This document shows positions 1,690 through 40,249 of a DNA stretch of 45,577 nucleotides, in pieces. Numbering within the stretch: position 1 is the first letter of the stretch; each line of letters begins with the position of its first letter. The stretch comes from Acidobacteriaceae bacterium. GTDB lineage: Bacteria; Acidobacteriota; Terriglobia; Terriglobales; Acidobacteriaceae. The position numbers and the translations under genes are program-made. Below the pieces are notes generated by a model. That model had not been told where the DNA came from and did not search any database. It saw nothing but the letters and a program-made list of their open reading frames with translations. The stretch lies in the NCBI GenBank assembly GCA_030038115.1, contig JASHPM010000493.1:1-45577 (forward strand). The letters are read 5' to 3'.

Positions 1690-2376
1690 TCAGGCAGCAG
1701 CGCCCAGACTGCGAGGGAGGATCCGAGGCAGAACATATGCAGCGACCTGGTCCGATACTTCCTGGATAGGCGCGGAGGGTATGACCGTGAAACCACCAAG
1801 CGCGTCGCTGAGCCTGAGGTATGAATCGCGACTGAGACACAGGAAGGCAATGGGATATTCCGGCTTGCGAGCGCGGGCAGCGACGGGATCGGCGTCGAGC
1901 AGGAAGCTGATGTCCGGGCGTGGCGCCAGGCGCATGATTCCGTGAACGCAGGCTCGCGTGATGGGGTTACGCAGACTGAGATTGGCCAGTTCATCGTAGA
2001 GATAGCGATCGAAGATGACGACGCGAGCCGCAGAATGACGCGACCTTCTCTCAATCCTGCGGAGGGAGAGAGCGTCCAGGAGATAGATACCGAGCCGGAT
2101 AGCAGTCATCAGAGGCGAGCGGACATTCTTATCACGCCGCTGTACGGGAGATTCCGGCGTACCGACGCCCCGATCGCCTTTGAAGAGCCAGAATCCAGCG
2201 CCTTCGCGCACGCTGCGTAGCCGGGCGACGTCATCCCAGAAAGCAATGATTTCGGTCTGGAAGCCGGCATCGCGCAGACGCGCGCAGAGACTGGCAATCT
2301 GAGTGCTTTTTCCGGCGCCGTCGATGCCGGAGAAGCTGACGAGCAGCGGCCGCGGAATGATGTAGTTCTGGCGCAC
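1690..2376 (-). CDS. thymidylate-kinase-like P-loop protein (Tmk family paralogue)
   Basis: 228-aa ORF with a GTG start. It has a Walker A motif FSGIDGAGKST near the N-terminus and an FDRYLYD motif as in dTMP kinases. It is the last gene of the minus-strand unit 5324->1690. Confidence 0.6.
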   Translation of the reverse strand: MRQNYIIPRPLLVSFSGIDGAGKSTQIASLCARLRDAGFQTEIIAFWDDVARLRSVREGAGFWLFKGDRGVGTPESPVQRRDKNVRSPLMTAIRLGIYLLDALSLRRIERRSRHSAARVVIFDRYLYDELANLSLRNPITRACVHGIMRLAPRPDISFLLDADPVAARARKPEYPIAFLCLSRDSYLRLSDALGGFTVIPSAPIQEVSDQVAAYVLPRILPRSLGAAA

Positions 2377-2405
2377 GGATCGGCTCCAATCGGTTCAAGA
2401 AGTAC

Positions 2406-2843
2406 CTAGTGCGGGTGGCTGGGGCTGCCAGCGGAAGCGGCGGCGACGGTTCCAATGGCGATGGCAGCGCCGACCAGCAGGCCGACACGGATGGCAATGG
2501 AGCGGATGCGTCTTTGCTTTGCGGGTGCGATGGCGGCTCCGGCGGGCCGCGAGGCGGGAACACCCTCGGGCTTGAGATACGGTGCGGCCGCAGTACCCAC
2601 GGGCTGTTGCGTGGAGTTTTGCTGCGCGGCGGATGGAGGAGGCTGAGGAGCATCCGGCTGCGCGTTCTGGCCGGCGGATTGAGCCGGCGCCGGAGCGGCA
2701 GCGGCGGGAGCTGGCTGAGGAGCATCCGGCAGGGGCGTTGTTGCGGTTGCGGCGCCTGCGAAGGGCTCGGCCAACAGCACGACAAGACAACAGACAACTT
2801 GCCGAGCGATCTGCCGTTTTAGCCAGGAAAACGAGATTCTCAT
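2406..2843 (-). CDS. Pro/Ala/Gln-rich membrane-anchored hypothetical protein
   Basis: 145-aa ORF with an ATG start. It has an N-terminal hydrophobic segment (VVCCLVVLLAEPFAGA), a long P/A/Q low-complexity spacer and a C-terminal hydrophobic helix (IAIRVGLLVGAAIAIGTVAAA). Confidence 0.55.
   Translation of the reverse strand: MRISFSWLKRQIARQVVCCLVVLLAEPFAGAATATTPLPDAPQPAPAAAAPAPAQSAGQNAQPDAPQPPPSAAQQNSTQQPVGTAAAPYLKPEGVPASRPAGAAIAPAKQRRIRSIAIRVGLLVGAAIAIGTVAAASAGSPSHPH
2641..2730. repeat. 18-nt perfect direct repeat, in frame, inside the P/A-rich CDS
   Basis: ggctgaggagcatccggc occurs at 2641-2658 and again at 2713-2730. The offset is 72 nt (24 codons). On the minus strand each copy encodes the repeated PDAPQP peptide. 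Confidence 0.8.
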
Positions 2844-2900
2844 GACTTACCCCCGGGACTTATCCCTGTATGAAAAGTTCAACCTGACTACCAGAGAGAG

Positions 2901-3299
2901 TTATGCCGCGCTTTCCGACTCGCCCTCGGGACCTCCGGTTTCGCACTGCGCAGACATGAGGCCGCCGGGGCGATGGCGGAAACTCTGGACTGCCTCTGCA
3001 GCGCTGGAATACCTCTCAAAGAGGCAGTCGACTCCCAGAGTCCGAAGCACCTCCTCAGCCTCGGCGTGCAACGCTGCGAGCTTCACATCGCCGTTGCGCT
3101 TAAGAGCCTCTTCAAGGCAGGAGAGCAGCAGATGAACGGCGGCATCATCCATGCTATGAACGCCGGAGCAATCGAGCACGATACGGGGGCGCTCGACATC
3201 AAGGCACGGCTGCAGATCGCACAGGAAGTTCCGCTCCACGGTTCCGGTAACCGTGGCCGGAAACCCGTGCACCATTACGACAGGCATTCTGACCAACAT
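2901..3299 (-). CDS. STAS-domain protein (anti-sigma-factor antagonist family)
   Basis: 132-aa ORF with a SpoIIAA/RsbV-like pattern: RPRIVLDCSGVHSMDDAAVHLLLSCLEEALKRNGDVKLAAL. It lies directly downstream of the MOP-fusion gene. Confidence 0.7.
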   Translation of the reverse strand: MLVRMPVVMVHGFPATVTGTVERNFLCDLQPCLDVERPRIVLDCSGVHSMDDAAVHLLLSCLEEALKRNGDVKLAALHAEAEEVLRTLGVDCLFERYSSAAEAVQSFRHRPGGLMSAQCETGGPEGESESAA

Positions 3300-3362
3300 T
3301 CCATTTGCTCCTTCATTGAAGCGATTTGAGCATCGAAACCTTGCCTCACGTTGACTCCCGAC

Positions 3363-5324
3363 CTATCCGGAATTCTCAAAGAGACGCGCCAGCTCAGCTT
3401 CCGGATGGTGCATGACATGGCGCAGGGTGTTCCGTCCATACAGCATGAGGGTGAGCAGGTTCGTCCTGTACCAGCAACATCGCACCATCCGCGGAGAGAA
3501 GCCGCAGAGGAAGCGAAGGCGATGGGCCTTGCCCTCCAGCACGGCCGCGACCAGGCGGTGATTTCCATCAAGGACGGTCAGCGGCTCCGATTGATTGATA
3601 CCGATGAGGACGATCGAGCCGGGTATGGGCTCGTCTCGAGCCAGGCGCCGCCGGAGTACGTCAATCTTCGCCTGAAACAGATGATCAATGGCCGACGGGC
3701 GGCTCAGCATGCGCTGGACGACACCGGTGACGGCGAAATCGCCGCGCGCGATTTTTCGCCAGTGCGCTCGCGGGAACACCCGAATCTGGCCGAGGCCCGC
3801 GGTTCCGACCTCGAACTCATACCACTCGGTGTCGGAGGGGAGTTCCTTCCACAGAGCGAAGTGACGCATGAAAAGGAGAGCGCGACGCCTGTCGTTCTCA
3901 CCGGGATCATCGAAATCGGGGGAGAAGACGAGGGCGCGCCGCGCTGCCTGGTACGCATGATAAGCGGGATTCTCGAAGTCGCTCTGGAGAAACCCCGCGA
4001 TGACTTCATCCTCCGAAATGCGCCGAATGAGCCGGATGGAGTGCAGGACGGCGGGGGTGCGGACAGCGGCGTTGCGCGAGGCGGTAGCAAGGAACGGCAC
4101 CCCAACCAGCACGAGCAGAACGATCATGAGCAGAAACTGCACCACGATCACCTGCTGCAGGGAGGAATGGAAACGGCAAATGCCCGCGACCACCACGGCG
4201 GTGAAGGCAAATTGCAGCCAGCTGGCATGGGCGATCCGGTACGACATTTCGTAAGCGATGATGACGGCACTGAGGGAGTAGATGACAGTAGCGACGGCCT
4301 TGAGCGCCAGGAGATACGAGAGTCCGTGGGGCCCGGCGATGCGGAAGCCGGAACCGAAGAGGGTGGACCACAGCGACTCAGGCGCGAGGCGGAGGCCGAT
4401 GGCCAGTATGGAGCCGATCAGCAGCACGAGCGCAAGAGAGGTAGCGATGAGCGAGAGGCCTCGGCGTTCCTCGTCACGTGTGCCGGCGACCACCGGGAAC
4501 ATGCCGTTCATCACAGCAGAGGAAAAGGAGAACACGACGCGGCCGACCATAGCCACGGCAGCGTAGAGGCCCGCGGCGGTGGGCGCGAAGTAGTGCTTGA
4601 CGAGGACGATGTCGCAGTTGTTGATAAGCATCTGCCCGGAGAAGAAGACCAGGGCCTGGAGGGATTCCCGCCACGCAAGCCGGAAGCGAAGCGGGCCGGG
4701 AGGCGGCGGCGCGAGCCTGGGTGCAATGGCGGCCCATGCTACGGCCATCGCCGCGGCGTTGGCAGCGATGACGCCGGTGACACCAAAGCCGGCAGCGGCC
4801 ATGAGCACCGATCCTCCAAGGCGAACCGCTCCCTCAAGAACGAGATTGGAAGCGAGGCGGCGGAAGCCGCAGGCGCCCTGGGTATAGCCGCGGCGGGTTC
4901 CGAGGGGGATGTAAAACGCCGCGCCCGCCGCGAGAAGAACGATGAGCAGGGGGCTGGGAAGATTCAGCCAGGCCGAAATACCGCGCCGGAAAAGCAGCAA
5001 CGCGAGTGCGACGAGGATGCCGCTGGTCCATGCGGCGCGGTGGAGATCGCGATAGGCAGCGCCTTTGCCGTCGGCGGAATTCTGCTGGGCAACGACTTTC
5101 GCGGAGACGATCTGAAAAGAGAGCGTTACCGCCGAGATGATGGTGAGCAGGGTGTAGACGACGGTAGCGTGACCAAAGCCCGTGGGGCCGAGGAAGCGCG
5201 CGACTGCGACGTTGTAGGCAAGATTGACCGCGGTGGCGAGAATAGAGCCTGACAGGAGGACGACGCTGCCGGAAACGATGCGCGCCTGAAGGGTTCTCGA
5301 ATTGCCGGACGGGCTGCTCAACAC
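3363..5324 (-). CDS. MOP/Wzx-family polysaccharide transporter fused to a C-terminal soluble domain with a ParB/Srx-like DGNHR motif
   Basis: 653-aa ORF with a GTG start and GGAG 10 nt upstream. Residues 1-~425 are about a dozen hydrophobic helices with the typical flippase N-terminus (LAYNVAVARFLGPTGFG). Residues ~430-653 are hydrophilic and contain PLTVLDGNHRLVAAV (codons at 3555-3569). Confidence 0.8.
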   Translation of the reverse strand: MLSSPSGNSRTLQARIVSGSVVLLSGSILATAVNLAYNVAVARFLGPTGFGHATVVYTLLTIISAVTLSFQIVSAKVVAQQNSADGKGAAYRDLHRAAWTSGILVALALLLFRRGISAWLNLPSPLLIVLLAAGAAFYIPLGTRRGYTQGACGFRRLASNLVLEGAVRLGGSVLMAAAGFGVTGVIAANAAAMAVAWAAIAPRLAPPPPGPLRFRLAWRESLQALVFFSGQMLINNCDIVLVKHYFAPTAAGLYAAVAMVGRVVFSFSSAVMNGMFPVVAGTRDEERRGLSLIATSLALVLLIGSILAIGLRLAPESLWSTLFGSGFRIAGPHGLSYLLALKAVATVIYSLSAVIIAYEMSYRIAHASWLQFAFTAVVVAGICRFHSSLQQVIVVQFLLMIVLLVLVGVPFLATASRNAAVRTPAVLHSIRLIRRISEDEVIAGFLQSDFENPAYHAYQAARRALVFSPDFDDPGENDRRRALLFMRHFALWKELPSDTEWYEFEVGTAGLGQIRVFPRAHWRKIARGDFAVTGVVQRMLSRPSAIDHLFQAKIDVLRRRLARDEPIPGSIVLIGINQSEPLTVLDGNHRLVAAVLEGKAHRLRFLCGFSPRMVRCCWYRTNLLTLMLYGRNTLRHVMHHPEAELARLFENSG

Positions 5325-5547
5325 GTTCGTGAGTCTCCAGCTGCGAGGGGATGGGTCCGGAGGTTTTTCCGCTGCAACAGAGAAACCCGGGCCGCCGGAA
5401 GTGGCTCAGAGACGCGGAAGACGTGCGGTTCTGTACCGCGACTACATCATCCGATGCGGAATTGCGCAGGGTGGCTGCTCGCGTCCGGTGAAATGCCGCC
5501 GTCGCGACAACCTCTGGTATTCCTGCGCGACTCTAACGAGTATCTTT

Positions 5548-6540
5548 ATGGCCGGTCGCATAGCCGCTGCATCGCTATTTCTTCTCCTGCTGCTCCACGG
5601 ATGCCCCGGCACACCTCGCCCAGTGCAACTGAAATACAGAGCCGCGGGAAATTCGCCGGAAATACTGGCGGTGTACGAACCATGGTTTGGGCACCCAGGG
5701 CACATTTCCGTGGGCTATTCTTCGCACGATCCCGCCGAGTTGCGCCGGCAGATGGAGGATGCGAAGCGCATGGGAATCTCGGGATTCGTGGTGGACTGGT
5801 ACGGGAACCGCGACCCGTTCAACGGCGAGACTTACACGCTGATGCAACCTATCGCCGCCGATGAGAAATTCACAATCGCCATGATGTACGACGAAACCAA
5901 CGTAGAGGACGGGGCAACGGATGAAGCGATCGCGGAATTCACGATGTTCCACGATAGGTACCTGACAGCGGCCGCGTCCGGGCAGGAGGCTTACCTTACG
6001 TATCTGGGCCGCCCAGTCATCTTTGTCTTCCCCAAAGGCGGATATACGGACTGGAATAAGGTGCGCGACGCGACCCGACGCTGGAATCCGGCGCCATTGC
6101 TGATCGACGAGAACCTGCCCGGCAAGTATGCCGATGCTTTCGACGGCTATTACGCGTGGATTAGTCCCGGATCAAAAGGCTGGGCAGCGGATGGCAGTAA
6201 CTGGGGCGAGGATTATCTGAGCAACTTTTACGGCACCATGGCGACAAAGTATCCTGACAAGATTATCGTCGGGGGTGCGTGGGCGCAGTTCAACGACAGT
6301 AAAGCATCGTGGGGTCTGAACCGGCATATTGCGGCACGTTGCGGCCAGACCTTCCGAGATACGTTCAACTTCTGGCGACAATACTTTCCAAGTGGACAGG
6401 TCATTCCTTTCATGCTGGTTGAGACATGGAACGACTACGAGGAGGGATCGGACATGGAGCCGGGGCTGCCCGGCTGCGGGGGACAGCCTGCGCCCACCTC
6501 GCTGGAGGGCGAAGAGGAAACAGCTACGGGGCCGCGGTGA
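5548..6540 (+). CDS. exported glycoside-hydrolase-like TIM-barrel protein (GH99/WbsX-like), possible lipoprotein
   Basis: The ATG at 5548 gives MAGRIAAASLFLLLLLHGC (signal peptide plus Cys). Motifs VYEPWFGHPGH, GYSSHDPAELRRQMEDAKRMGISGFVVDWYG and the C-terminal ETWNDYEEGSDMEP resemble the GH99-type YxxWYG / NEWxEG pattern. The upstream part of the 5302 ORF overlaps the divergent gene and looks non-coding. Confidence 0.6.
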   Translation: MAGRIAAASLFLLLLLHGCPGTPRPVQLKYRAAGNSPEILAVYEPWFGHPGHISVGYSSHDPAELRRQMEDAKRMGISGFVVDWYGNRDPFNGETYTLMQPIAADEKFTIAMMYDETNVEDGATDEAIAEFTMFHDRYLTAAASGQEAYLTYLGRPVIFVFPKGGYTDWNKVRDATRRWNPAPLLIDENLPGKYADAFDGYYAWISPGSKGWAADGSNWGEDYLSNFYGTMATKYPDKIIVGGAWAQFNDSKASWGLNRHIAARCGQTFRDTFNFWRQYFPSGQVIPFMLVETWNDYEEGSDMEPGLPGCGGQPAPTSLEGEEETATGPR

Positions 6541-6553
6541 GGATCGCGCGGGA

Positions 6554-7540
6554 TCAGGCGATGCGCAATCTGTAGCCAGCGGCGGGTTCGGAGGCGTCCG
6601 CTGCGCCGGTCTGTGCGGCGACTATTTCTTCGGAGTAGTAAACCTTATTGATGATGGAAAGCGGCCGGGCGCGCACTTCGTCGTAGACGCGCCCGAGATA
6701 CTCGCTCATCACGCCGAGGCAGAAGAGCAAAATGCCTCCAACCAGGAGAATGACGGCGGAGAGAGCGAGGCCAAGGGTGTCAACAGGGTTTGTGGCAAAG
6801 AGGGAGCAGGCAACCAGGATGACAACCATACACTCAAGGAAGCAGGAAAGGGCAAAACAAAGGCGCAATGGCTTATAGCTGAAGCTGGTGATCGCATCCA
6901 TCGCATACTTAATGCGACTAACAAAGGATAGCTTGCCGTCTCCTGCAAGGCGATCCTGGCGATCGTAATACACGACGTCATTCCGATAACCAATCCAGGC
7001 GCGCAACCCGGGCAGATAGCGGTTGCCTTCGCGCAAGGCATTGACGGAGTCCACGGCCTGACGATCCATTAGTCCGAAGATGCCGGCATCGAGCGGGATG
7101 GGGTAATCGGAGAGCGCGGCAAGAACACGATAGAAGACAGGAAAGAGCTTTGCGAGCAGCCGACGGCGCTCCTGACGGCTTCGCCTGACCGCGACGACCA
7201 CCTGGGCGCCTGCGCGCCAGGCATTGATGAGCTGGGGCAGAACTTCGGGGGGATCCTGAAAATCGCCGTCCATGACGATGACTGCGTCGCCGCGGGAAGA
7301 GCGAAGCCCCGCGGAGATGGCGCCCATGTGGCCCCAGTTTCGCGTCAAGTCGACGACGACGACATGCGGATCAGCGGTCTGGAGATCGAGGAGTAGTTCC
7401 AGGGAAGAATCTGTCGAGCCATCATTGACGTAGATGACCTCCCACTCTTCGCCGATGGTCTTCAATTCGCCGGCAACGGCTTCATTGAACCGGTAAATGA
7501 GTTCTTCTTCGTTATAGATGGGCACGACTACGGAAATCAT
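6554..7540 (-). CDS. GT2 polyprenyl-phosphate glycosyltransferase (ArnC/GtrB/CsbB/Dpm1-like)
   Basis: ISVVVPIYNEE, VNDGSTDSS and VMDGDFQDPPE (DxD) form a GT2 catalytic core, followed by two C-terminal TM helices. This is the architecture of polyprenyl-P sugar synthases. The ATG at 7540 has AGGAG 8 nt upstream. An alternative GTG lies at 7624. Confidence 0.85.
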   Translation of the reverse strand: MISVVVPIYNEEELIYRFNEAVAGELKTIGEEWEVIYVNDGSTDSSLELLLDLQTADPHVVVVDLTRNWGHMGAISAGLRSSRGDAVIVMDGDFQDPPEVLPQLINAWRAGAQVVVAVRRSRQERRRLLAKLFPVFYRVLAALSDYPIPLDAGIFGLMDRQAVDSVNALREGNRYLPGLRAWIGYRNDVVYYDRQDRLAGDGKLSFVSRIKYAMDAITSFSYKPLRLCFALSCFLECMVVILVACSLFATNPVDTLGLALSAVILLVGGILLFCLGVMSEYLGRVYDEVRARPLSIINKVYYSEEIVAAQTGAADASEPAAGYRLRIA

Positions 7541-7636
7541 TTTTGTAACTCCTGGGCCGTATGGAGGGGGAATTCCGGCATTGCTGCCGAGTGTCGTGCG
7601 CTCCCCTTCTTTTGATGCGTGCACGTGCAGGCAGGT

Positions 7637-8137
7637 CTACTGTTCAGATGCCGATTGGAAGATGCGTACCTTCCAGCGCGCGGCGGCAGGTGTGAGGACC
7701 ACGAGATAGCGGGTCCGCACGCGCTGGGTTGCGAGAACTTTGTCGCCGGCGAGCACCTGGTCATCGAATTCGGCGTGGTCGACCATCTGGATGGATAATC
7801 CGTCGGGCGAGTAGAAAACGATTTGCAGGCGGTGAATGGGATTCAGGAAGCGAGTGTGGATTCCGAGACCCACCTGCCCGGCAATGGTGTTGGCGAGCCT
7901 ATCCTGGGCGATTCCGACAAAGTCCTGATTGAGAAGCTGCGGCTGGTTCCAATCGAGAGCCGCCTGAAGTTCCTGCCAGGACTGCAGATAGTCGCGAACG
8001 ACAGCCGACTGCGTGAGTTGCTCGAGGGGCCGAGACCCCTGGAGGTCCGCAGGCTCAACCTGTACCGGCGACTGACCGAGGCAAGCTGCCAGTGGCGCGA
8101 ACAGGAGGCAGAACAGAATTGGAATGCGCCAGGTCAC
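7637..8137 (-). CDS. exported hypothetical protein (putative lipoprotein)
   Basis: The GTG at 8137 overlaps the upstream stop as GTGA. The N-terminus (M)TWRIPILFCLLFAPLAACLGQS is a signal peptide with a lipobox-like LAAC. An alternative GTG lies at 8152. No known motif was found. Confidence 0.6.
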   Translation of the reverse strand: MTWRIPILFCLLFAPLAACLGQSPVQVEPADLQGSRPLEQLTQSAVVRDYLQSWQELQAALDWNQPQLLNQDFVGIAQDRLANTIAGQVGLGIHTRFLNPIHRLQIVFYSPDGLSIQMVDHAEFDDQVLAGDKVLATQRVRTRYLVVLTPAAARWKVRIFQSASEQ

Positions 8138-11878: not shown

Positions 11879-12033
11879 GGTCCCCTCGCGTAGAGGCTTG
11901 GATTCGGAAGACGTAACGGCCGGTTGCCTCTTTGCCGCGGCGCTATGGGACCGTGACGGTTATGCGAGGAAGAAGCGAGCCATACAGCCAACGCAGAAGG
12001 CGTTGAAGTGAATCAAAGGGCCTGTAACTTGCA

Positions 12034-15000
12034 TTGGTCGTTGGTGACAGGTTGATCGCCAGAAATGATTGTCTGAAACTTGCCTGTGCGATTGCGTTCA
12101 TCGTGTTCGCTCGTCCACTACGCCCACAAACGTACCAAGTGGGCTCGGATGCTCAAGTGAAGCCTGAGACTCAAAAAGGCGAGACCCCAGCTACCGGGCA
12201 GCAGCTGGGATGGGGATCGAACATCGAGAACGCCCGACTAGCGCACGCCGCGCAGCTTGCGCTCATGCGTGGAGATTACGCCGTGGCCCTTGATTATGCG
12301 CAGCGTGCGGCACAATCCACGCCGAACAATCCTCAGCTGTGGTTCCTGCTGGGCTACGTGGCGCGTCTGGATGGGAGATATGACGAATCCATCGGCGCCT
12401 TCAAGCACGGGCTTCGCCTGGATCCTTCTTCGCTGAGCGGCATGTCCGGTCTTGCGCAGACCTATAGCGTGATGGGGCGGACCGCGGAAGCGGAGCAATT
12501 GCTGAAGCAGGTTCTCGCTTCTGACCCACGACAGGTGGACGATCTGATGGTTCTGGGAAATCTCTGCGTCGAATCCGGAGATTACACCGCCGCGCTCGAA
12601 TGGCTGGAGAGAGCGGAACAGGCGCAGCCAAACGCGCGCGCCGAGGTGCTGATGGCAATTTCGTATGAGCACCTGAAGCAGATGGATCAGGCGAGCCACT
12701 ATCTCGATCTGGCCAGGAAACGCGCCCCGAACAATCCCGATGTGGAGCGATCGCTGGCGGGATACTATCGTGCCACCGGCGACTATGGCAAAGCTATTAA
12801 CGAGCTGAATGCGATTCGGACTCGATCCCCGGAGGTGGTGGCGGAACTGGCCGACACCTACCAGCTGGACGGGAAAGCGAAAGACTCCGCGCAGCTTTAC
12901 GAGCAGGCAGCCAACGCCATGCCGAAGGATCTCCAATTGCAACTCTCGGCGGCGCAGGCGGAGGTGAGCGCGGGTTCGATGGAGAGCGCGAATAGCTTTT
13001 TGGCGCGAGCAACGCAGATCGATCCAAACTACTACCGCCTGCAGGCGATTCGCGGAGAGATTGCGCAGCAGCAGGATCGCTTCAGCGAAGCGGCAAGCGA
13101 CTACGCCAGAGCGGTGGAGCAACTGCCGGCGTCCCCGTCCGAAGGGCCTCTGTACGGGATCCAGCTGCACATGGATCTTGAAGAACTGTACGACGACCTC
13201 AACGAGCCGGACCGAGCCCGCGAGCAATTTCAGATTGCGCAGGCGGCGATCGGGAAACTCGACGAGCGCGGAACAGCCCGGCCGGCATTCCTGCGTCTGC
13301 GAGCCCTCATCCGAATGAAAGCGGGCCAGCCAGCCAGCGCGCTGGAGGATGCGAGGGCGGCCCTGGCGCTCAACCCCCACGATCCGAATAATCTGCAGTT
13401 GGACGGCGACGTGCTGATGAAGCTGGATCGCGCCGAGGACGCGATCACGGTGTACAAAAAGGTTCTAGCCATCGATCCGCGGAACCGATTTGCGCTGACT
13501 TCTCTCGGATATGCGTCGCGTGCAGCGGGAAAAGAGGACGACGCCGAGAGGTATTTCGATCTGCTGGCAAAGGATTACCCCAGTTCGTATATTTCCTACC
13601 TAGCTCTGGGGGACCTGTACACAGCCCGCAGAGAGTACCGCAAGGCGCAGGAGTCCTACAGCCGGGGCTACGCGCTGAATCCACAGATAGGGTTGATCGT
13701 GGCCGGAGGGATCAACGCAGGTATCGAAGCACACAATCTTACGTTGGCGGGTATGTGGCAGCACCGCGTGACGGCGAACATGGAGGCAGTGCCGGAGGTG
13801 TTGCGGGAAGAGGAAAGGTATTTCAGTTTCAAAGGAGACTACGGAAGGTCGGCCGGTTTCGGGCAGGAAGCGATCAGGAGTATGCCCGACGATCGGGATG
13901 TTGTCGTCTACCTTGGCTACGATTTTCTATATCTCAACAAGTATGAGCAGCTGCTGGCACTAACAAAACAGTATGATACGATCCTGCCGCACGAACCGGA
14001 TATTCCATTGCTGGCGGGGTATGTGGAGAAGCACGACGGACATCTCGAAGAGGCCCTGCAGGATTTCACGAAAGCGCTGGATCGCGATTCCAGTGTGGAG
14101 ACAGCGTACGTGAACCGGGGTTACGTGCTCAACAGCCTGCACAGGCCTGGTGACGCGGCGGCCAGCTTCGAGCAGGCGCTGCAGCGCGAACCCAGGGACG
14201 GCCAGGCTCATTTGGGGCTGGCCTACGCCGAGCTGGACCTGGATCACCCCGAGGCAGCGATTCGGCAAGCCGGACTTGCGGAAGAGGCGTCAGGAGACTC
14301 GCAGCTGATCCATGCGATTAAGGCAACCGCCTATGGAAGAGAGGATATGCTGACCAGGGCGGCGGAGGAGTATCGCGCCGCGTTGCGATTTACTCCGAAT
14401 GACCCGGTGCTTCATCTTGGTCTCGGCAATACGCTGTTCGGGGAACGCCGCTATCGCGAGGCCATTGACGAGCTGCTGATCGCGGAGCGGATGGCCCCTG
14501 CAGATCCGCAGGTGGATGTCCTGCTTGCCCGCACTTACGCGAACCTGCAGGATCGTCAGAACACTTACCACTATGTGCAGCTCGCAGAGCAGCGCGCAGC
14601 GGCGGCGTCTCGAACCGGAAATGCGGCGGAGGTTCTAAGTGAAACTTACATGGCAACGGGACAAGCTCTGAGCGCGCTTGGAGACCAGCAGGCGGCCATG
14701 GAGCGATTCAGCGACGCGCTGGCCGAGTCGCACAGCAATCGTGCCGGGATTCGTCTTGCGATTGCGCAGCTGATGACTCAACAGGGCAATGCCGAAGGCG
14801 CGGAACGCCAGATTGCGCTGGCGCAGATGGAAGCCGAAGCGGGAGACGCCAAGCCGGTCACAGGCAACCAGTATGTTGACGCTGCCGATGTCCTGCGGCA
14901 ATTACACGAATATCAGCTATCGCAGAATTATCTGCAACGGGCGCAAGCGGCAGGAGCCCCGGACATCCCGGTACGGGTGGGATTTGCCAGCAATTACCTG

Positions 15001-16365
15001 GCGCTGGGCGACACGGCCAGGGCCGCAGCCGAACTAACCGGCGCCGCCCAGGACCCTGACAGCCAGTCGAATTACCAGTTTTTGCTGGCAGAGGCGAATG
15101 TCTACCAACAGGAACATCGCGGGCCGCAGGCGCTCTCCGCCTTCGCACAAGCAGCCAGCGCTGCCGGAGACGATCCGACCGCGATGCAGGGCCTGCTGCA
15201 GGCGGGAGGAGATGAAGGTTACCGGATCAACGGCAGGGTCAGCACGCTGTCGGATTTTACGGTTCAGCCAATTTACGAGGACAGCACAGTCTATGTCTTA
15301 GATGCGAAGACATTCGGCAATCCGCCCGCGGTGGTGGGCAACAGCGTAAACGTCACGGAACTCCCGCGGCCACGCTCCTCGATTGAAACGCAATGGACGG
15401 CGGCTTACCACCTGCACCTGGGGAATCTGGCTACTCCCGCGGGCTTCTTCCAGATACGGAACGCTCGCGGCACGATCTCCGACCCCGCGACACTTACCAT
15501 CGTGAACCGAAGCACCACCGATTTCGTCATGAATTTCGGCGTGAATCCGACTCTGCGTTTCGGCAGCAACGATCTGACCTTTAACAGCGGCATTCAGGGC
15601 ACGATTCGGCGCGACTCAATCTCGCCGGTGCAAATGGATCAGAACCTATTTCGCGTCTTCACCTACCTGCAAACAACATCTTTCATGAATGCTGTTTCGG
15701 CCAGTGGCTACGTTGTCCGCGAGGCCGGTCCCTTTACCAGAAGCCCGATCGACGAGACGTCGCTTGCCGGAGCTATCGATTTTCGCGTGGGTGCTCCGTG
15801 GGGAAAGACGGCCTTGATAACCGGCTGGGGCATGAACGATCAGGATTTCGCGCAGCACTTTACGCCGTCAGTATCGGGAACAACGGAGAACTACTATACG
15901 TCGTCTTACATCGGCTTGTCGCACCGCTTTGCCGGGCGCTTGAACACGGAAGGGCTTGTAGAGGATCTGCGTACCTGGCGCGTGGTACCCTCGTTCACTT
16001 CGTCTTCGGGGAACGTCGTCTATTCCGGAACCGCGCAGGCACTGCGGCCCGCCGCACAAATCGACTTCACTCCGGCACGGAATTGGGAGATTCAGGCAAA
16101 CGGGGCTTTTGAGAGCACACGGAGCTTCCATCTCTACGACATGAACCAGGACGGGATTTCCCTTGCTTTTACCCTGCCGTTCAGCCGAACTTTCAATGAT
16201 GAGACCGGAGAAGTGCGCCTGCGATACCCGATTCGTTTTTCCGGAGGCATACAGGCGGAGACCTTTTCGAACTTTCCCGATCTTCCCAGCGTGCCCGGGG
16301 TGCCCTATCTGACTCAGACCCAGGACATGCGCGTCCGTCCCTATGTAAGCATCAATATCTTTTGA
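12034..16365 (+). CDS. giant TPR-repeat protein with C-terminal outer-membrane beta-barrel (PelB/BcsC/PgaA-like exopolysaccharide export scaffold)
   Basis: 1443 aa with a TTG start and an N-terminal hydrophobic signal. About 1050 aa are TPR-like repeats (many A..Y..AL..DP.N motifs). The last ~380 aa (15220-16362) show alternating hydrophobic beta-strand periodicity and end in ...RPYVSINIF, a terminal Phe as in OMP C-terminal signatures. Confidence 0.75.
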   Translation: MVVGDRLIARNDCLKLACAIAFIVFARPLRPQTYQVGSDAQVKPETQKGETPATGQQLGWGSNIENARLAHAAQLALMRGDYAVALDYAQRAAQSTPNNPQLWFLLGYVARLDGRYDESIGAFKHGLRLDPSSLSGMSGLAQTYSVMGRTAEAEQLLKQVLASDPRQVDDLMVLGNLCVESGDYTAALEWLERAEQAQPNARAEVLMAISYEHLKQMDQASHYLDLARKRAPNNPDVERSLAGYYRATGDYGKAINELNAIRTRSPEVVAELADTYQLDGKAKDSAQLYEQAANAMPKDLQLQLSAAQAEVSAGSMESANSFLARATQIDPNYYRLQAIRGEIAQQQDRFSEAASDYARAVEQLPASPSEGPLYGIQLHMDLEELYDDLNEPDRAREQFQIAQAAIGKLDERGTARPAFLRLRALIRMKAGQPASALEDARAALALNPHDPNNLQLDGDVLMKLDRAEDAITVYKKVLAIDPRNRFALTSLGYASRAAGKEDDAERYFDLLAKDYPSSYISYLALGDLYTARREYRKAQESYSRGYALNPQIGLIVAGGINAGIEAHNLTLAGMWQHRVTANMEAVPEVLREEERYFSFKGDYGRSAGFGQEAIRSMPDDRDVVVYLGYDFLYLNKYEQLLALTKQYDTILPHEPDIPLLAGYVEKHDGHLEEALQDFTKALDRDSSVETAYVNRGYVLNSLHRPGDAAASFEQALQREPRDGQAHLGLAYAELDLDHPEAAIRQAGLAEEASGDSQLIHAIKATAYGREDMLTRAAEEYRAALRFTPNDPVLHLGLGNTLFGERRYREAIDELLIAERMAPADPQVDVLLARTYANLQDRQNTYHYVQLAEQRAAAASRTGNAAEVLSETYMATGQALSALGDQQAAMERFSDALAESHSNRAGIRLAIAQLMTQQGNAEGAERQIALAQMEAEAGDAKPVTGNQYVDAADVLRQLHEYQLSQNYLQRAQAAGAPDIPVRVGFASNYLALGDTARAAAELTGAAQDPDSQSNYQFLLAEANVYQQEHRGPQALSAFAQAASAAGDDPTAMQGLLQAGGDEGYRINGRVSTLSDFTVQPIYEDSTVYVLDAKTFGNPPAVVGNSVNVTELPRPRSSIETQWTAAYHLHLGNLATPAGFFQIRNARGTISDPATLTIVNRSTTDFVMNFGVNPTLRFGSNDLTFNSGIQGTIRRDSISPVQMDQNLFRVFTYLQTTSFMNAVSASGYVVREAGPFTRSPIDETSLAGAIDFRVGAPWGKTALITGWGMNDQDFAQHFTPSVSGTTENYYTSSYIGLSHRFAGRLNTEGLVEDLRTWRVVPSFTSSSGNVVYSGTAQALRPAAQIDFTPARNWEIQANGAFESTRSFHLYDMNQDGISLAFTLPFSRTFNDETGEVRLRYPIRFSGGIQAETFSNFPDLPSVPGVPYLTQTQDMRVRPYVSINIF

Positions 16366-16376
16366 GGTGTTCATCT

Positions 16377-17714
16377 GTGAAGATTTGCTTAGTTGCGACC
16401 TTTCCCCCGAGCGGGCGGCAACTGAACGAGTATGCATTTCATCTCGCGAGAGAACTGCACAGGCACAGGGGCGTGGAATTGACAATTCTTGCAGATGAAC
16501 TCGCGGAGTACGAGTTTGCCACGGACGAATACGGCAGTCCGTTGAGCGGCGAGAGGCAGAAGGAACTGCCTGGCTTTAACGTGATTCGGTGCTGGAAATT
16601 CGGAAGCCTGGCGACTCCGGTGCGTCTGCTCCGTGCTTTGCGACGGATACAGCCCGATATTGTGTGGTTCAACCTTGTCTTTTCAAGCTTCGGCACCCCG
16701 GAAAACCCGCTGGCCGCATTTGCCGGGCTATCAGCGCCTGCGCTCGCGCGAGCTGCGGGTTTTTACACGCACATTACTTTGCACCACATTCTCGAGGAGG
16801 TGGACTTTGCTGTGGCAGGTGTGCGACGCGAGCGGCTTTATCGGCTGGGTACCGATATGGCAACGAGAGCGCTGCTCCGGGCGAATTGCGTTTCTGTGCT
16901 TTTGTCGGGATATCGCCGAAGCCTGATCAGGAAATATTCCGCGAACAACATAGTGCTGCGCACTCATGGAACCTTCGCTTCGACGCCGAGCATGCCCGAC
17001 TTTGCCGGGCGGGGCAATCCGGATATGCGAATCCTTGCGATCGGGCATTGGGGGACCTACAAACGGCTTGAAACGCTGATGGAGGCCTTTCCAAAAGTGC
17101 TGCAAGCCGTGCCGAAGGCAAGGCTGGTCATCGCCGGAGCGAACCATCATACAAAGCCGGGCTACTGGGAGTCCGTTCGTCAGGCTCAGCCTCGGGGGTT
17201 GCCGATTGACTTCCGCGGATATGTGCGCGAGGAGGATATCCCGGAACTTTTTCGGACGGCTTCGGTGGTTGTGATGCCATACGACTCGGCGACCGGGTCA
17301 AGCGGGCCCGCTCACCAGGCATGCGAATACGGGGTTCCAATCGTATGCGCCGACATCGACGACTTCCGGTGTATGGCGTCAGACGAAGGCATGGCGATCA
17401 GCTTTTACAGAACCGGCGATGCCAGCGATCTGGCGCAAAAGCTAACCACATTGTTGCAGAACTCCGGACTGCAGCGGCAGATGGCTGAGCATAACTACGA
17501 GGCCGGAGTTCAGATGACGATGACGCGCGTGGTCCGCGACTATCTGCGATGGTTTGAGCTGCACAAATGCAAAGAGGCGCTGCGACGAGACAGACTCAAC
17601 GCGGGCCAACGGCGGAGGGTAAGCGATTCGCAGCAGGAGTGGACGCTGGGTACGGACCTGCAGCCGAGCGGCGCGGACAGCAGGAGACAAAGCGAGGAGG
17701 CTAGTGCTGCCTGA
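16377..17714 (+). CDS. GT4-family glycosyltransferase
   Basis: The N-terminus KICLVATFPPSGRQLNEYA and the C-terminal Glycos_transf_1 region (RLVIAGANHH..., VVVMPYDSATGSSGPAHQACEYGVPIVCADI) support the call. The GTG at 16377 has GAGG 8 nt upstream, overlapping the TGA of the TPR-porin gene. An alternative TTG lies at 16362. Confidence 0.8.
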   Translation: MKICLVATFPPSGRQLNEYAFHLARELHRHRGVELTILADELAEYEFATDEYGSPLSGERQKELPGFNVIRCWKFGSLATPVRLLRALRRIQPDIVWFNLVFSSFGTPENPLAAFAGLSAPALARAAGFYTHITLHHILEEVDFAVAGVRRERLYRLGTDMATRALLRANCVSVLLSGYRRSLIRKYSANNIVLRTHGTFASTPSMPDFAGRGNPDMRILAIGHWGTYKRLETLMEAFPKVLQAVPKARLVIAGANHHTKPGYWESVRQAQPRGLPIDFRGYVREEDIPELFRTASVVVMPYDSATGSSGPAHQACEYGVPIVCADIDDFRCMASDEGMAISFYRTGDASDLAQKLTTLLQNSGLQRQMAEHNYEAGVQMTMTRVVRDYLRWFELHKCKEALRRDRLNAGQRRRVSDSQQEWTLGTDLQPSGADSRRQSEEASAA

Positions 17715-17798
17715 GGCGGAATACGTTCCACTCCCGCCTGACTGTGAGCCGTAAAACGCCGGTTAACCGACAGCGAAGAGAACCAAGTACGGCCCCAG

Positions 17799-18665: not shown

Positions 18666-18816
18666 CGTGCGCTTATTAGATGTTTAGCGAGAACGCAGGG
18701 TGGTCTGAGATTCTTTCGCCCCCACAGCGCCATCGTGCGAGGCGCGGCAACACGTAGCCACGCGGTGCATCAAAACTGTATGCCTGAGCGGTTCTGTTGA
18801 AAGCCGCAAGGGCAAG

Positions 18817-20019
18817 GTGACCCAGTCCCCAATGTCCTCTCCCTGGCCACGCTTCAGGTTGCTTCCAGCTTTGTTGGTGGTGCTTTGCGCAACAGGTTCA
18901 GCCGCTTCAGCCGCCTGGGCAGGAGATCTTCGAATTACCATCCCGCGGCACAGCGAACTAACGCCCGTGCAGAGGCTGAATCGACAGGGTGTGGAGGCTA
19001 TCCGGAAGGGCAATTACGACAAGGCCGAGGCGCTCTTTTACCAGGCGTATCTCTACGATTTCTCCGACCCATTCACGCTAAATAATCTGGGCTACGTTGC
19101 CGAACTGAAGGGCGATCTTGAGCAGGCGGAGAAGTTCTATCAGCTCGCGGAGAAACAGGAGTGCGGCGCTGTGATCGCCCTGAGCAGTGCGAAGCAACTG
19201 CAGGGACAGCCGATGATGTACGCGCTGGGGACGATCGAGAACCAGCCCATGCGCGTGGATCGCATGAACGTCGAAGCAGTGGGGTTGCTGTCGCAGGGCA
19301 GGAACGTTGAAGCTGAGTTACTTCTTCGCCAGGCACTGGCGTTGCAGCCAAGGGATCCCTTCACGCTGAACAATCTTGGAGTGGCGGATGCGGCCAGCGG
19401 AAACCTGCAGGGCGCATTGAGTTACTACGACGCGGCCGCCGCCACGAGATCGATGGAACCGATCATAGTCACGGCGAATCGCTCGTGGCGTGGGCGACCA
19501 GTCAGTGAGGCGGCCGCGGACAGCGCGCGCGATCTGCGCCAGCGAATGCGCGGCACGAACTTTTCTGAGTCGCAAGCCGCGATGCTGGCGGTGCAGGGAG
19601 TTTCCGCAGCAAACCAAAATGACTGGAACTCGGCTGAGCAGGATTTCATGAAAGCTTACCGGCTGGATCCGAACAACGCCTTTGCGCTGAATAATCGCGG
19701 ATATGTGGCCGAAAAAGAGGGTGACCTGGAGACAGCGCAGTTTTATTACGCAAAAGCGCGCAGGGCGTGGAATGGGAGCACGCACGTAGGCCTCGCGACA
19801 AAGATTTCCGCGGAAGGGGAGAGCATCGCCGCCGTTGCCACCGACAGCAACGGGAAGGTGGACGGCGAACTGGATGCTTACAGTCTGGGCCGGCGGGGAC
19901 AACCCGGTCCGGTCGAGCTGATTCCCAGAGGCGCTAACTCAGGTGAACCTGGTGTAACTCCAGTTCAACCTTCGCAGGGGAGCCGGCCCGGCTCTTCTTC
20001 AACACAGCCGCAGCAGTGA
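18817..20019 (+). CDS. secreted TPR-repeat protein
   Basis: 400 aa with a GTG start (alternative ATG at 18832). The signal peptide is LLPALLVVLCATGSAASAAWA. There are repeated TPR units (NNLGYVAELKGDLEQAEKFYQLA, NNLGVADAASGNLQGALSYY, NNRGYVAEKEGDLETAQFYYAKA). Confidence 0.75.
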   Translation: MTQSPMSSPWPRFRLLPALLVVLCATGSAASAAWAGDLRITIPRHSELTPVQRLNRQGVEAIRKGNYDKAEALFYQAYLYDFSDPFTLNNLGYVAELKGDLEQAEKFYQLAEKQECGAVIALSSAKQLQGQPMMYALGTIENQPMRVDRMNVEAVGLLSQGRNVEAELLLRQALALQPRDPFTLNNLGVADAASGNLQGALSYYDAAAATRSMEPIIVTANRSWRGRPVSEAAADSARDLRQRMRGTNFSESQAAMLAVQGVSAANQNDWNSAEQDFMKAYRLDPNNAFALNNRGYVAEKEGDLETAQFYYAKARRAWNGSTHVGLATKISAEGESIAAVATDSNGKVDGELDAYSLGRRGQPGPVELIPRGANSGEPGVTPVQPSQGSRPGSSSTQPQQ

Positions 20020-20023
20020 GATT

Positions 20024-21133
20024 ATGAGCCCCTTTCCCGACGCACAAAAGACAGTGACTCCATGCGCCGCCGACGAGTCAATGAAAGCTCTGTCGCAGCT
20101 GTTGCTCTCGTCGCGAAAGGCTGGGCCCCTGCCACCGGCGCTCTACGACATCGACAGGAAGGACTTCGACGATCTGGTGGAGCTGGCCAAAACGAATCAT
20201 GTAATCGTCCGCGGTCTGGCCATTGTCGCCGCGACGATGATCGATGCACGGGATACGGTACGCGCCGAATGGGTGGAGAGTGAGCTGGCTGCCGAGCGAT
20301 CCCGTATCGCGCAAGCGGTTGAATGCCTGCATTTGGTGTGTGCTGCTTTTGACGGAGAGGGTTTCGACGCAACGGTGATCAAATCGCTTGACCACTGGCC
20401 CGATCTAGGAAGCGATCTCGACCTTTATACAAACGCACCCCCGCGGCAGGTTTGCGCGCTGATGCGAAAGCGGTTTGGAGCGGAAACCGCACCTCGAAGC
20501 TGGGGAGACCGGCTGGCATGCAAATGGAACTTCAAGGTGCCGGGACTGCCGGAGCTGGTGGAGATTCATATGGGCCGGCTGGGTCAAACGGGGGAACAGG
20601 TGGCGATGGCTACAAACCTGCCGCGTCGCGCGCGGAGCGTGGAAATCGACAAGAGAGAGTTTCGGGTACCTTCACCCGCGGACGGCATCATGATCTCGAC
20701 GCTGCAACGCATGTACCGTCATTTCTTTTTCCGCTTGTGCGACATCGTCGATACGGCGGAGCTGGCCGCTTCCGGCATACTCGACTACGGCGAGCTGCGG
20801 TATTCGGCTCAGCGGGCCAGTATCTGGGAAGGCGTGGCGACCTACCTCATCATAGTCTCGGATTATGTTTTGAAGTTTCGCGGGACAGACCTCGGATTGC
20901 CGGCATTTGTAACAGAGGCGGCGCGGTTCGGCGGCGATCTCGTTCATCTCGGCGGGGACTTCCTGCGGGTCCCGGTTCTGCCCTGTGGCGCGCGGCTCTA
21001 TGGCTCGCAACTGGGCGGGCTGCTGCGCCGGCGAGAACTGCACAGCAGCGCAAGGGTTGGATTGCTTCCGTGGCTGGCCACGGCAGCGTTCGTGGGCGAA
21101 AAACTGACTGGCAACGACAAGGGTATTTGGTAA
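20024..21133 (+). CDS. uncharacterised nucleotidyltransferase-family protein (NTP_transf_5-like)
   Basis: 369 aa. The ATG lies 4 nt after the TPR gene stop. The motif IKSLDHWPDLGSDLDLY resembles the G[SD]x[DL]D[LI] nucleotidyltransferase signature of PF14907-type proteins that accompany polysaccharide/peptide-modification loci. Confidence 0.5.
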   Translation: MSPFPDAQKTVTPCAADESMKALSQLLLSSRKAGPLPPALYDIDRKDFDDLVELAKTNHVIVRGLAIVAATMIDARDTVRAEWVESELAAERSRIAQAVECLHLVCAAFDGEGFDATVIKSLDHWPDLGSDLDLYTNAPPRQVCALMRKRFGAETAPRSWGDRLACKWNFKVPGLPELVEIHMGRLGQTGEQVAMATNLPRRARSVEIDKREFRVPSPADGIMISTLQRMYRHFFFRLCDIVDTAELAASGILDYGELRYSAQRASIWEGVATYLIIVSDYVLKFRGTDLGLPAFVTEAARFGGDLVHLGGDFLRVPVLPCGARLYGSQLGGLLRRRELHSSARVGLLPWLATAAFVGEKLTGNDKGIW

Positions 21134-25662: not shown

Positions 25663-25847
25663 GGGAAACACATTAGATACAAGGGAGCCGTGAGTGGTTG
25701 TATGTCCACGTGGATCCGGAAACCGCGGGATGCATGTGGCTGTTTCAATGCAGGTATCAGTTCCGGCTGCCGATGACAGCCACGTAAACCAGCGGCCGAG
25801 GATCACGCATCTAAGCTGGCGTCCTCCACAAGAGGATCGGAGTGGTC

Positions 25848-34704: not shown

Positions 34705-34710
34705 AAATGC

Positions 34711-36180: not shown

Positions 36181-36257
36181 GTAACGTTCATCACCGTTGA
36201 ATTACACGCGACAAATGCAGAGAACGCCGTAAATCAACGCTTGGGAGAACACCCCGC

Positions 36258-40220: not shown

Positions 40221-40249
40221 CCTCAAACCAGACACAGGAGCTCGGAATA

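Follow-up and report, generated by a model that had tools for sequence, protein, structure and literature searches.

A conserved envelope-glycan locus of Acidobacteriaceae that joins a candidate GT-C glycosyltransferase operon to a TPR-barrel outer-membrane protein

The DNA analysed here, which we call the window, is a stretch of 45,577 nucleotides from an Acidobacteriaceae bacterium (assembly GCA_030038115.1, contig JASHPM010000493.1), and the genes of interest lie at positions 1690-21133. A preliminary description, made from the nucleotide sequence alone, had proposed that these genes form one non-canonical locus for the assembly and export of a glycan, built around a tetratricopeptide-repeat (TPR) porin and parallel to the Pel system. 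All of the genes listed in that description are found in place, some with starts or ends shifted by a few codons, and the open reading frame (ORF) list agrees with the gene calls of identical public contigs from metagenome-assembled genomes (MAGs; e.g., GCA_030045405.1). The description proves accurate overall, although several family labels (glycoside hydrolase, NTP_transf_5, Tmk-like, and GT-C) are weaker than was stated. The genes form an uncharacterised envelope-glycan locus of soil Acidobacteriaceae that is both real and strongly conserved. It consists of three adjoining units: a module containing a MOP-superfamily transporter (5324 to 1690), an operon that begins with a candidate GT-C glycosyltransferase (11818 to 6554) and faces a glycoside hydrolase (GH) gene, and a TPR-barrel gene followed by a GT4 glycosyltransferase gene.

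The TPR-barrel gene (12034..16365, + strand) encodes a predicted outer-membrane protein of 1443 amino acids with a signal sequence, ~1000 amino acids of TPRs, and a C-terminal barrel of ~16 strands that is encoded from about nucleotide 15220 and ends in ...INIF. The TPRs are matched by models in both Pfam and NCBIfam. In an AlphaFold2 (AF2) model of amino acids 1000-1443 (pLDDT 71, pTM 0.70), the last ~380 residues form ~16 long antiparallel strands, so the barrel that the preliminary description expected is present. Every significant Foldseek match of this region is an outer-membrane barrel, with AlgE in third place and the PgaA barrel in fifth (TMt 0.60). At the sequence level, amino acids 1000-1443 match no Pfam family at E-values up to 10, including BCSC_C, the PgaA barrel, alginate-export, and DUF560/Slam. 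In hhalign comparisons with E. coli PgaA and BcsC, which have low power with single-sequence templates, just the helical, TPR-like sequence upstream of the strands was aligned (probability 2-29%). As modelled, the 1443-aa protein has the architecture of the BcsC/PgaA/PelB class, i.e., a TPR array with a C-terminal outer-membrane barrel. Two other affiliations were rejected. The match to TPR_Slam that might indicate a Slam-like translocator is generic and weak, and the barrel belongs to no Pfam family, DUF560 included. Membership of the PEP-CTERM/PrsT group is contradicted by the PrsT model, whose cut-off is 312 bits and whose score of 194 bits reflects generic TPR similarity, and no exosortase was recognised among the products scanned.

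The TGA stop codon of the TPR-barrel gene (16363-16365) lies within the GAGGTG Shine-Dalgarno sequence of the GT4 gene (16377..17714, + strand; 445 amino acids), whose GTG start codon at 16377 comes 8 nt on. This overlap, which had been seen before, agrees with our gene map, and the GT4 gene is predicted to be translationally coupled to the TPR-barrel gene. The GT4 protein matches Pfam Glyco_trans_1_4 (E 7.5e-19), but only generic GT4 models recognise it in NCBIfam (21-33 bits versus cut-offs of 260-460), and it has no sequence match in the PDB.

The GT-C candidate (10127..11818, - strand; 563 amino acids) is assigned through its relatives to the PF10131/PTPS_related family. Its gene is the most conserved of the locus, with 76-79% identity across Acidobacteriaceae, and the wider family comprised 861 cluster representatives in a remote search. 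PF10131 is matched by 8 of 27 distant members (best E 1.4e-5), by the fusion protein P0441 above the threshold, and by a few close orthologues; one member of the family matches PMT_2. PF10131 belongs to the Pfam clan GT-C and is annotated as being of unknown function (PMC7801869). The 563-aa protein has ~9-10 transmembrane (TM) helices and a soluble domain of ~150 amino acids before the last of these, and a YD...H motif right after TM1 is invariant in alignments of close and distant members. In GT-C enzymes, the catalytic acid is located directly after TM1, in the first extracytoplasmic loop. We know of no characterised member of PF10131. Taken with its relatives, the 563-aa protein is a candidate member of the GT-C superfamily (clan CL0111). 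A search of PDB sequences with the GT-C profile gave nothing useful.

Three partner genes follow the GT-C gene. The first (9009..10130, - strand; 373 amino acids) encodes a predicted membrane-anchored, periplasmic protein without Pfam or PDB matches; in many distant relatives, a homologue of this protein forms the C-terminal part of a GT-C fusion. The second (8134..9012, - strand; 292 amino acids) encodes a predicted secreted protein with faint, sub-threshold similarity to the Ig-like Big_1 and Invasin_D3 families (Pfam E 5e-4 and 1e-3), and the third (7637..8137, - strand; 166 amino acids) a predicted lipoprotein (PLAAC) of no known family, which has no match in Pfam or NCBIfam. The start of each gene in this series overlaps the preceding stop by 4 nt, and GT-C and its three partner genes are translationally coupled.

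The operon ends with a GT2 gene (6554..7540, - strand; 328 amino acids), which deserves the label that it was first given (Pfam Glycos_transf_2, E 1.5e-32). In the PDB it is closest to GtrB (5ekp; full-length match at E 2.3e-64, amino acids 2-301), followed by ArnC (3e-41), and the NCBIfam models that it matches are PgfS (4.7e-69) and ArnC (8e-43). Because the similarity to GtrB and ArnC is full length and the protein has two C-terminal TM helices (segments at 223-283), we assign it to the GtrB/ArnC/DPMS type, as a predicted polyprenyl-phosphate hexosyltransferase.

The gene facing this operon (5548..6540, + strand) encodes a predicted lipoprotein (LLLLHGC) that resembles (beta/alpha)8 hydrolases of families GH71 and GH99. 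All of its Pfam scores are sub-threshold (GH71, 8.8e-7 and 28.5 bits versus a cut-off of 34; GH99, 0.012; WbsX, 0.013), and the earlier label of a GH99/WbsX-like lipoprotein is therefore retained as a GH71/GH99-like one of lesser certainty. An orthologue in locus L093 has a strong GH71 match. A PDB sequence search with the window protein gave nothing useful.

The first gene of the MOP module (3363..5324, - strand) encodes a Wzx-like protein of 653 amino acids, of which amino acids 1-421 correspond to the MOP part and ~430-650 to an alpha/beta domain. In the AF2 model (pLDDT 78.6), the N-terminal part adopts a MOP fold. The best PDB match by Foldseek is the lipid III flippase WzxE (9g9p; TMt 0.70, E 1.5e-6), with MATE and MurJ next. 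The window protein itself has no Pfam match, being below detection for PF01943, which is matched by 16 of 40 orthologues (best E 3.8e-8). The model and the orthologues bear out the transporter with an extra domain that had been proposed, and the protein is predicted to belong to the MOP (Wzx/MurJ/MATE) superfamily. The PelG model matches neither the 653-aa protein (E up to 10) nor the 40 orthologues (E up to 5); as a group, these proteins match PF01943/PF13440 alone.

The C-terminal domain of the transporter (~230 amino acids) carries DGNHR and CCWY motifs that are invariant in the orthologue alignment. No Pfam or PDB relative of this domain was found, and a search of PDB sequences with a profile of the whole fusion gave nothing useful. 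In the AF2 model, DGNHR is situated at a strand-to-helix junction, which we take to resemble the strand-DGxHR-helix phosphate-binding motif of the ParB/Srx fold; matches to ParB-like PHROG families are faint and sub-threshold (E 0.09-0.19, two orthologues). In tblastn searches with the domain, the best phage matches had E=3, and plasmids yielded only stand-alone hypothetical proteins from Streptomycetaceae megaplasmids, in uninformative contexts. These ~193-aa homologues have 24-25% identity over 190 amino acids (E ~1e-5). One is encoded in a Kitasatospora sp. NBC_00039 plasmid (NZ_CP108290.1; L174, 9028-9609) and others in Streptantibioticus cattleyicolor megaplasmids. The domain and the megaplasmid proteins look like an unannotated domain family.

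The remaining genes of the MOP module are small. A stand-alone STAS protein (2901..3299, - strand; 132 amino acids) was labelled correctly (Pfam STAS, E 1.3e-11) and also resembles the NCBIfam anti-sigma-factor antagonist superfamily (5e-7, under the cut-off). Genes for orthologous MOP proteins have a STAS gene adjoining or one gene (GT2) away in loci L089, L090, L092, and L093 and in the P0368 locus. The next gene (2406..2843, - strand) encodes a P/A-rich protein of 145 amino acids with hydrophobic segments at 12-30 and 112-131 that has no family match in Pfam or NCBIfam and travels with the MOP module in relatives. The last (1690..2376, - strand) encodes a P-loop protein of 228 amino acids. 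The Tmk-like label is correct as to the gene and its P-loop, but the similarity is just faint: Pfam Thymidylate_kin matches over the P-loop only (1.7e-8), and thymidylate kinases in the PDB match with E 1.6e-6. A counterpart of this gene is also found in L093 and the P0368 locus.

Species-representative genomes contain about 500 relatives of the barrel. Acidobacteriota account for all of the best 80, nearly all of which are labelled Acidobacteriaceae or Terriglobales, and Acidipila rosea DSM 103428 is among them. We tallied the window genes across 82 Acidobacteriaceae loci. The TPR part is present in 81 of these, as is the GT4 gene directly downstream of the barrel. GT-C is present in 71, the 373-aa partner in 70, the 292-aa and 166-aa partners in 66 each, the GH gene at the same position in 59, and GT2 in 52. 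The shortfalls result mostly from truncated contigs, GT2 being the exception; where flanking DNA could be read, the GT-C operon, the GH gene, and the MOP module accompany the barrel, TPR, and GT4. The four genes of the MOP module (Tmk-PA-STAS-MOP) relocate as one block in L025, L034, L059, L037, and L080, yet stay in the locus. The layout recurs in the complete genome of Alloacidobacterium dinghuense (CP060394.1), where signalling genes flank the locus, and the flanks vary between genomes while the core stays together. This grouping, repeated in 82 related loci, is far above chance, and the locus is vertically conserved, far more so than ordinary exopolysaccharide (EPS) or O-antigen clusters. 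The genes are thus co-conserved in related genomes, as the preliminary description required, and its proposal of a single, non-canonical locus for glycan assembly and export is supported. Two separate barrel-GT4 loci (L041 and L069) come from one MAG (Terracidiphilus sp. SPRUCE 169), and may be paralogous copies or reflect a mix of strains.

All 82 syntenic loci belong to one family-level clade, so it could be supposed that the units are independent neighbours held together by shared ancestry and do not form a single system. The block of DUF5666, TPR, NTP_transf_5, TonB, and VWA genes shows just the looser linkage that descent alone should produce. However, the flanks differ while the core is constant, and the MOP module shifts its position but remains in the locus. 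Moreover, GT4, MOP, GT2, and GT-C/373-aa genes re-associate in distant lineages in another gene order, and GT-C is fused to the 373-aa partner many times and to GT4 once. We regard mere co-inheritance as highly improbable.

The distant lineages are represented by loci L089 and L090 and by 80 metagenome loci; the counts that follow are from the 40 loci that span 15 kb or more. Many distant GT-C relatives reach a length of 1000-1100 amino acids and consist of GT-C fused to a homologue of the 373-aa protein; in the fusion P0378, for example, amino acids 685-1038 align to amino acids 30-351 of that protein (E 6e-20). The usual order is GT2, GT-C~373 fusion, 292-like, 590-aa, GT4, and MOP. A further 590-aa protein is encoded in all 40 loci, and GT2 in 36, MOP in 35, and GT4 in 35, with GT4 and MOP adjacent in most. 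A weak homologue of the 292-aa protein (u409) comes after the GT-C fusion in 37 of 40. The GT4 and MOP proteins are specific orthologues: in L089 and L090 the GT4s are specific to the 445-aa GT4 (35-37% identity, E 1e-66 to 1e-80) and leave the other window GT4s unmatched, and the MOP proteins match the 653-aa protein (E 1e-31 to 1e-39), not the other Wzx of the window. The closest solved relatives of the distant GT2s are Dol-P-Man synthase, ArnC, and GtrB. STAS genes are often present. In a further lineage (the P0368 locus), a Tmk-like-...-MOP-STAS series is arranged back-to-back with GT-C-364-286-176, and another lineage has the order GT2-TPR-214-GT4-GT-C. One distant GT-C member is from an Acidimicrobiales MAG.

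Across the 80 distant metagenome loci, neither the barrel nor its TPR domain has a homologue, and the GH protein has one. The conserved heart of the system is GT-C with its partners, the polyprenyl-phosphate-sugar GT2, MOP (with STAS), and GT4. This set is kept in distant loci that lack the barrel, and the conserved core is therefore not Pel-like. The data do not support treating the GT-C operon as an accessory, since it belongs to the part of the locus that is kept in distant lineages.

Some distant loci have additional features. In L089 (4135-7003), the interval between GT2 and the GT-C fusion encodes a STAS protein, a SpoIIE-type phosphatase, a HATPase_c_2 kinase, a second STAS protein, and a response regulator, a set that hints at partner-switching control of the pathway. 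In P0362, P0508, and P0441, GT-C is joined in a single protein to GT4, Wzy_C (O-antigen ligase/polymerase), and EEP phosphatase domains, respectively; these clusters contain 1-3 sequences each, and assembly artefacts are possible. A gene for an EEP-family phosphatase also adjoins GT-C in L089 and L091.

The locus lacks the recognisable hallmarks of established export pathways. In none of the products scanned did Pfam detect a domain of a PilZ/BcsA-type synthase, Wza, Wzc, Wzy, or phosphoglycosyl-transferase, and among the products of the interval there was no match to Wzy_C, Wzz, Poly_export, Bac_transf, or Glycos_transf_4. Synthase, Wza, and Wzc are also absent from the 3.7 kb to the left of the window, from the flanks of the locus in relatives (complete genomes included), and from within 10 kb of the barrel, as the preliminary description had anticipated for the neighbourhood. 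The 3.7 kb on the left encodes a giant signalling protein with at least 12 HAMP repeats (L001, 3-3596, - strand), which directly adjoins the window in the source MAG. A poly-HAMP protein also flanks the Alloacidobacterium dinghuense locus (L092, 17000-21971).

Our preferred model, to which we assign a probability of roughly 45%, is a lipid-carrier pathway in which the last transfer is made in the periplasm by GT-C and the product is exported through the TPR-barrel protein. On the cytoplasmic face, GT2 would charge polyprenyl phosphate with a hexose, and the retaining GT4 would make or lengthen a lipid-linked acceptor in the cytoplasm. MOP would then flip the lipid-linked intermediate or intermediates, perhaps under the control of STAS and the extra domain, which would be cytoplasmic. 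On the periplasmic face, GT-C and its partners would move the sugar from the polyprenyl-phosphate-sugar onto the glycan. The TPR scaffold would take up the chain and the barrel would carry it over the outer membrane, with the GH lipoprotein trimming or freeing the product. The analysis shows which folds and families are present, how the genes are coupled and co-conserved, and that a core is common to distant lineages. The order of steps, the donor sugar, a polymeric product, and regulation by STAS, the Tmk-like protein, and the extra domain are our inferences. In the CAZy classification, GT2 and GT-C enzymes are inverting and GT4 enzymes are retaining, and the product is therefore predicted to be an alpha-linked hexan of the alpha-glucan or alpha-mannan type. 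GH71 enzymes are alpha-1,3-glucanases and GH99 enzymes are endo-alpha-mannosidases, and an alpha-linked product is consistent with a hydrolase of the GH71/GH99 type.

Several observations weigh against this lipid-carrier model. Generic porins match the barrel about as well as AlgE and PgaA do, and the query-normalised TM scores are 0.3-0.4. The window copy of the 563-aa protein matches PF10131 with just E 0.18, so that its GT-C label is sustained by the matches of distant members and a few close ones, and hhalign of the GT-C profile against ArnT, a low-power comparison with a single-sequence template, found nothing. The Acidipila rosea subclade has no GT2 gene in this slot, and the absence is genuine: in Acidipila rosea, a mere 183 nt lie between the GH gene and the 166-aa gene. 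Neither a phosphoglycosyl-transferase nor a recognisable Wzy was found among more than 120 loci, so that no lipid-linked acceptor is defined. Finally, the identity of 50-79% across the family could equally suit a fixed envelope glycoconjugate in place of a secreted polymer.

This last point leads to a different role for the same genes. The core might modify proteins (as do Pgf, PMT, and archaeal Agl), lipid A or lipopolysaccharide (ArnC/ArnT), or a membrane lipoglycan, and the TPR-barrel protein would have another outer-membrane role, such as the surface placement of a glycoconjugate or of lipoproteins. The best-matching families of GT2, PgfS (protein glycosylation) and ArnC, are those that such a role would lead one to expect. 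The core occurs in loci without a homologue of the barrel or TPR domain, and its very high conservation and invariant gene content are unlike those of variable EPS and O-antigen loci. Several secreted proteins and lipoproteins are co-encoded that could be substrates, and there is the weak TPR_Slam match. However, ~1000 amino acids of TPRs joined to a 16-strand barrel are the hallmark of polysaccharide secretins, the top structural matches include AlgE and PgaA, a glycan hydrolase lipoprotein is co-conserved, and the barrel fits no Pfam family, including DUF560/Slam. Modification of a fixed glycoconjugate is thus, in our judgement, unlikely.

A Pel-like pathway is a further alternative and is the one closest to the preliminary description. 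Here, GT4 and MOP would polymerise and translocate the glycan from nucleotide sugar, the TPR-barrel would export it, the GH protein would assume the role of PelA, and GT2 and GT-C would add periplasmic side-branches, as Gtr does on O-antigen. The two parts lists share a GT4, a MOP-superfamily protein, a TPR-porin, and a periplasmic hydrolase lipoprotein, and TPRs followed by a 16-strand barrel are found in PelB, as in BcsC and PgaA. The GT4-barrel coupling in 81 of 82 loci and the neighbouring positions of GT4 and MOP in most distant loci agree with a Pel-like arrangement, and the lack of a phosphoglycosyl-transferase in any locus fits a carrier-free polymerase. In detail, however, the resemblance is not supported. 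MOP and its 40 orthologues match PF01943/PF13440 and not PelG, with a structure closest to WzxE; GT4 matches only generic GT4 models among those searched; and the GH71/99-like hydrolase is not PelA-like. There is no match to PelC, PelD, or PelE, no cyclic di-GMP (c-di-GMP) receptor was found, and the GGDEF gene of the window is not syntenic, so no conserved c-di-GMP input accompanies the locus. Unlike Pel, the locus includes the GT-C operon and the polyprenyl-phosphate-sugar GT2, which form the core kept in distant lineages. GT-C is its most conserved gene and occurs in all of the distant loci, and this would be unusual for a mere decorating enzyme. The Pel parallel thus stands for the shared architecture and not for the individual components, and a Pel-like pathway seems rather unlikely to us.

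The lipid-carrier model could also take a more specific form, which would be an undescribed route of polymer synthesis. In this form, the PF10131-type GT-C and its partners would polymerise an alpha-chain in the periplasm from polyprenyl-monophosphate sugars and hand the chain to the TPR-barrel, the flippase with its nucleotide-binding-like domain and STAS would gate the substrate, and the core would be ancient and shared with distant lineages, of which at least one is actinobacterial (Acidimicrobiales). We put this forward tentatively, as clearly less probable than not.

Comparison with known systems indicates that the parts can all be placed in known superfamilies, whereas their combination fits no described system or textbook layout; literature searches found no description of the locus. 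The TPR-barrel protein resembles PelB, BcsC, PgaA, and AlgK/AlgE in its N-terminal signal or anchor, long TPR array, ~16-strand barrel ending in an aromatic residue, and nearby periplasmic hydrolase. It differs in that its barrel has no sequence membership in their families (BCSC_C, PgaA-barrel, or alginate-export). Unlike systems of the BcsC/PgaA/PelB class, the 82 loci have no processive GT2 synthase, co-polymerase, or c-di-GMP receptor, and the inner-membrane partners are MOP, GT-C, and GT4. With no synthase and no family-level match, the locus is not a member of the Pel, Bcs, Pga, or Alg systems. Acidobacteria have a separate, classical bcsAB-bcsZ-bcsC locus (PMC9693552). With the Wzx/Wzy pathway, the locus shares the Wzx-like protein alone, since Wzy, Wzc, Wza, and phosphoglycosyl-transferase were not found here.

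The pairing of a GtrB/ArnC/DPMS-type GT2 with GT-C is shared with GtrA/GtrB/GtrC, ArnC/ArnEF/ArnT, CsbB/YfhO, and AglD/AglR/AglS. In the last of these, the associated transporter is also of the MOP/Wzx type, and this trio of GT2, MOP, and GT-C glycosylates outside the cell (PMC3871713). Unlike all of these systems, the locus adds GT4, three periplasmic partners, and STAS-type regulators, and in Acidobacteria also a secretin-like outer-membrane protein and a hydrolase; it is thus more than a modifier of the Gtr/Arn type. A flippase-dependent pathway whose product leaves through a PgaA-like barrel instead of Wza has been described for Myxococcus WzpX/S/B (bioRxiv 10.1101/2022.02.11.480155). The Myxococcus pathways keep Wzy, Wzc, and OPX and have barrels without TPRs, whereas our locus is without these components and its barrel is preceded by ~1000 amino acids of TPRs. 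In the assembly of mycobacterial and corynebacterial lipomannan and arabinan, the GT4 enzymes PimA/B prime a lipid acceptor, the GT2 enzyme Ppm1 makes the polyprenyl-phosphate-sugar, and the GT-C enzymes MptA/MptB/Emb polymerise outside the membrane. By analogy, the GT4, GT2, and GT-C of the locus may follow the same logic. The GT-C families are different, however, with no sequence sign of orthology, and the locus adds a MOP flippase, STAS, and an outer-membrane secretin.

If the lipid-carrier model is correct, the locus joins GT-C glycosylation from a lipid carrier outside the membrane with the TPR-barrel export of synthase-dependent systems. Its conservation, which exceeds that of EPS and O-antigen clusters, points to a core function in the envelope. 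Members of the Acidobacteriaceae rank with the most abundant bacteria of soils. Soil aggregation, desiccation tolerance, and carbon retention are believed to be driven by their surface glycans, yet to our knowledge hardly any of the machineries behind these glycans has been studied. The analysis also defines families that have no present annotation, namely the barrel, the C-terminal domain of the flippase, and the PF10131-type GT-C together with its partners of 373, 292, and 166 amino acids. Carriers are available in culture (Acidipila rosea DSM 103428 and Alloacidobacterium dinghuense), so the model is directly testable.

Three genes to the right of GT4 are of uncertain membership. They encode a DUF5666-like protein (17799-18665, - strand; 58 of 82 relatives), a TPR protein of 400 amino acids (18817-20019, + strand; 54 of 82), each with weak Pfam similarity, and an NTP_transf_5-like protein (20024-21133, + strand; 51 of 82). 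The NTP_transf_5 label is weak, as its score of 28.2 bits is below the cut-off of 31.2. PDB sequence searches with this protein gave nothing useful, and a 355-aa protein had no match, or only sub-threshold ones, in Pfam and NCBIfam. The block is sometimes inverted as a unit in relatives and has no counterpart in distant loci. The pair of TPR and NTP_transf_5 genes, which had been counted in the core, is therefore better regarded as a family-level neighbour.

A GGDEF protein is encoded at 27413-29746, and the preliminary description had suggested that this diguanylate cyclase supplies a c-di-GMP input. We rejected c-di-GMP control through this gene because in none of the 82 relatives does a counterpart of it lie less than 10 kb from the barrel.

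The right half of the window contains a Wzx-type cluster (31862-43653) that encodes a Polysacc_synt_3 flippase, a GT2, two GT4s, two UDP-GlcNAc 2-epimerases, SDR epimerases/reductases, and a cupin, as well as an 8-TM protein of 489 amino acids that has no Pfam match and is possibly a Wzy. The GC content is 0.50-0.53 at 33-39 kb versus ~0.60 elsewhere, and this drop suggests horizontal acquisition. When the flippase gene of this cluster was used as a probe, it was found within 10 kb of the TPR-barrel gene in 0 of 82 relatives, so the cluster was rejected as the source of the missing Wzy and Wzc. A NusG paralogue resembling the antiterminators UpxY/RfaH (30215-30844, - strand; UpxY 9e-27, 94 bits versus an NCBIfam cut-off of 100) is divergent from the cluster and is probably its regulator; it likewise has no counterpart within 10 kb of the barrel in the 82 relatives.

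Two long ORFs lie opposite genes of the locus, one antisense to MOP (3351-5252, + strand; 633 amino acids) and one antisense to GT-C (10364-11851, + strand; 495 amino acids). Both are typical shadow ORFs of high-GC DNA and are not genes. In 65 of the 82 relatives, a gene for a PF04185 phosphoesterase (phospholipase C/AcpA family) directly follows GT4, +3 to +4 kb from the barrel. In the window, this gene is missing from the slot after GT4 and a member of the family is encoded 8 kb further on (25842-27380). With the EEP-family phosphatases of the distant loci, this hints that a phosphodiesterase step may be part of the pathway.

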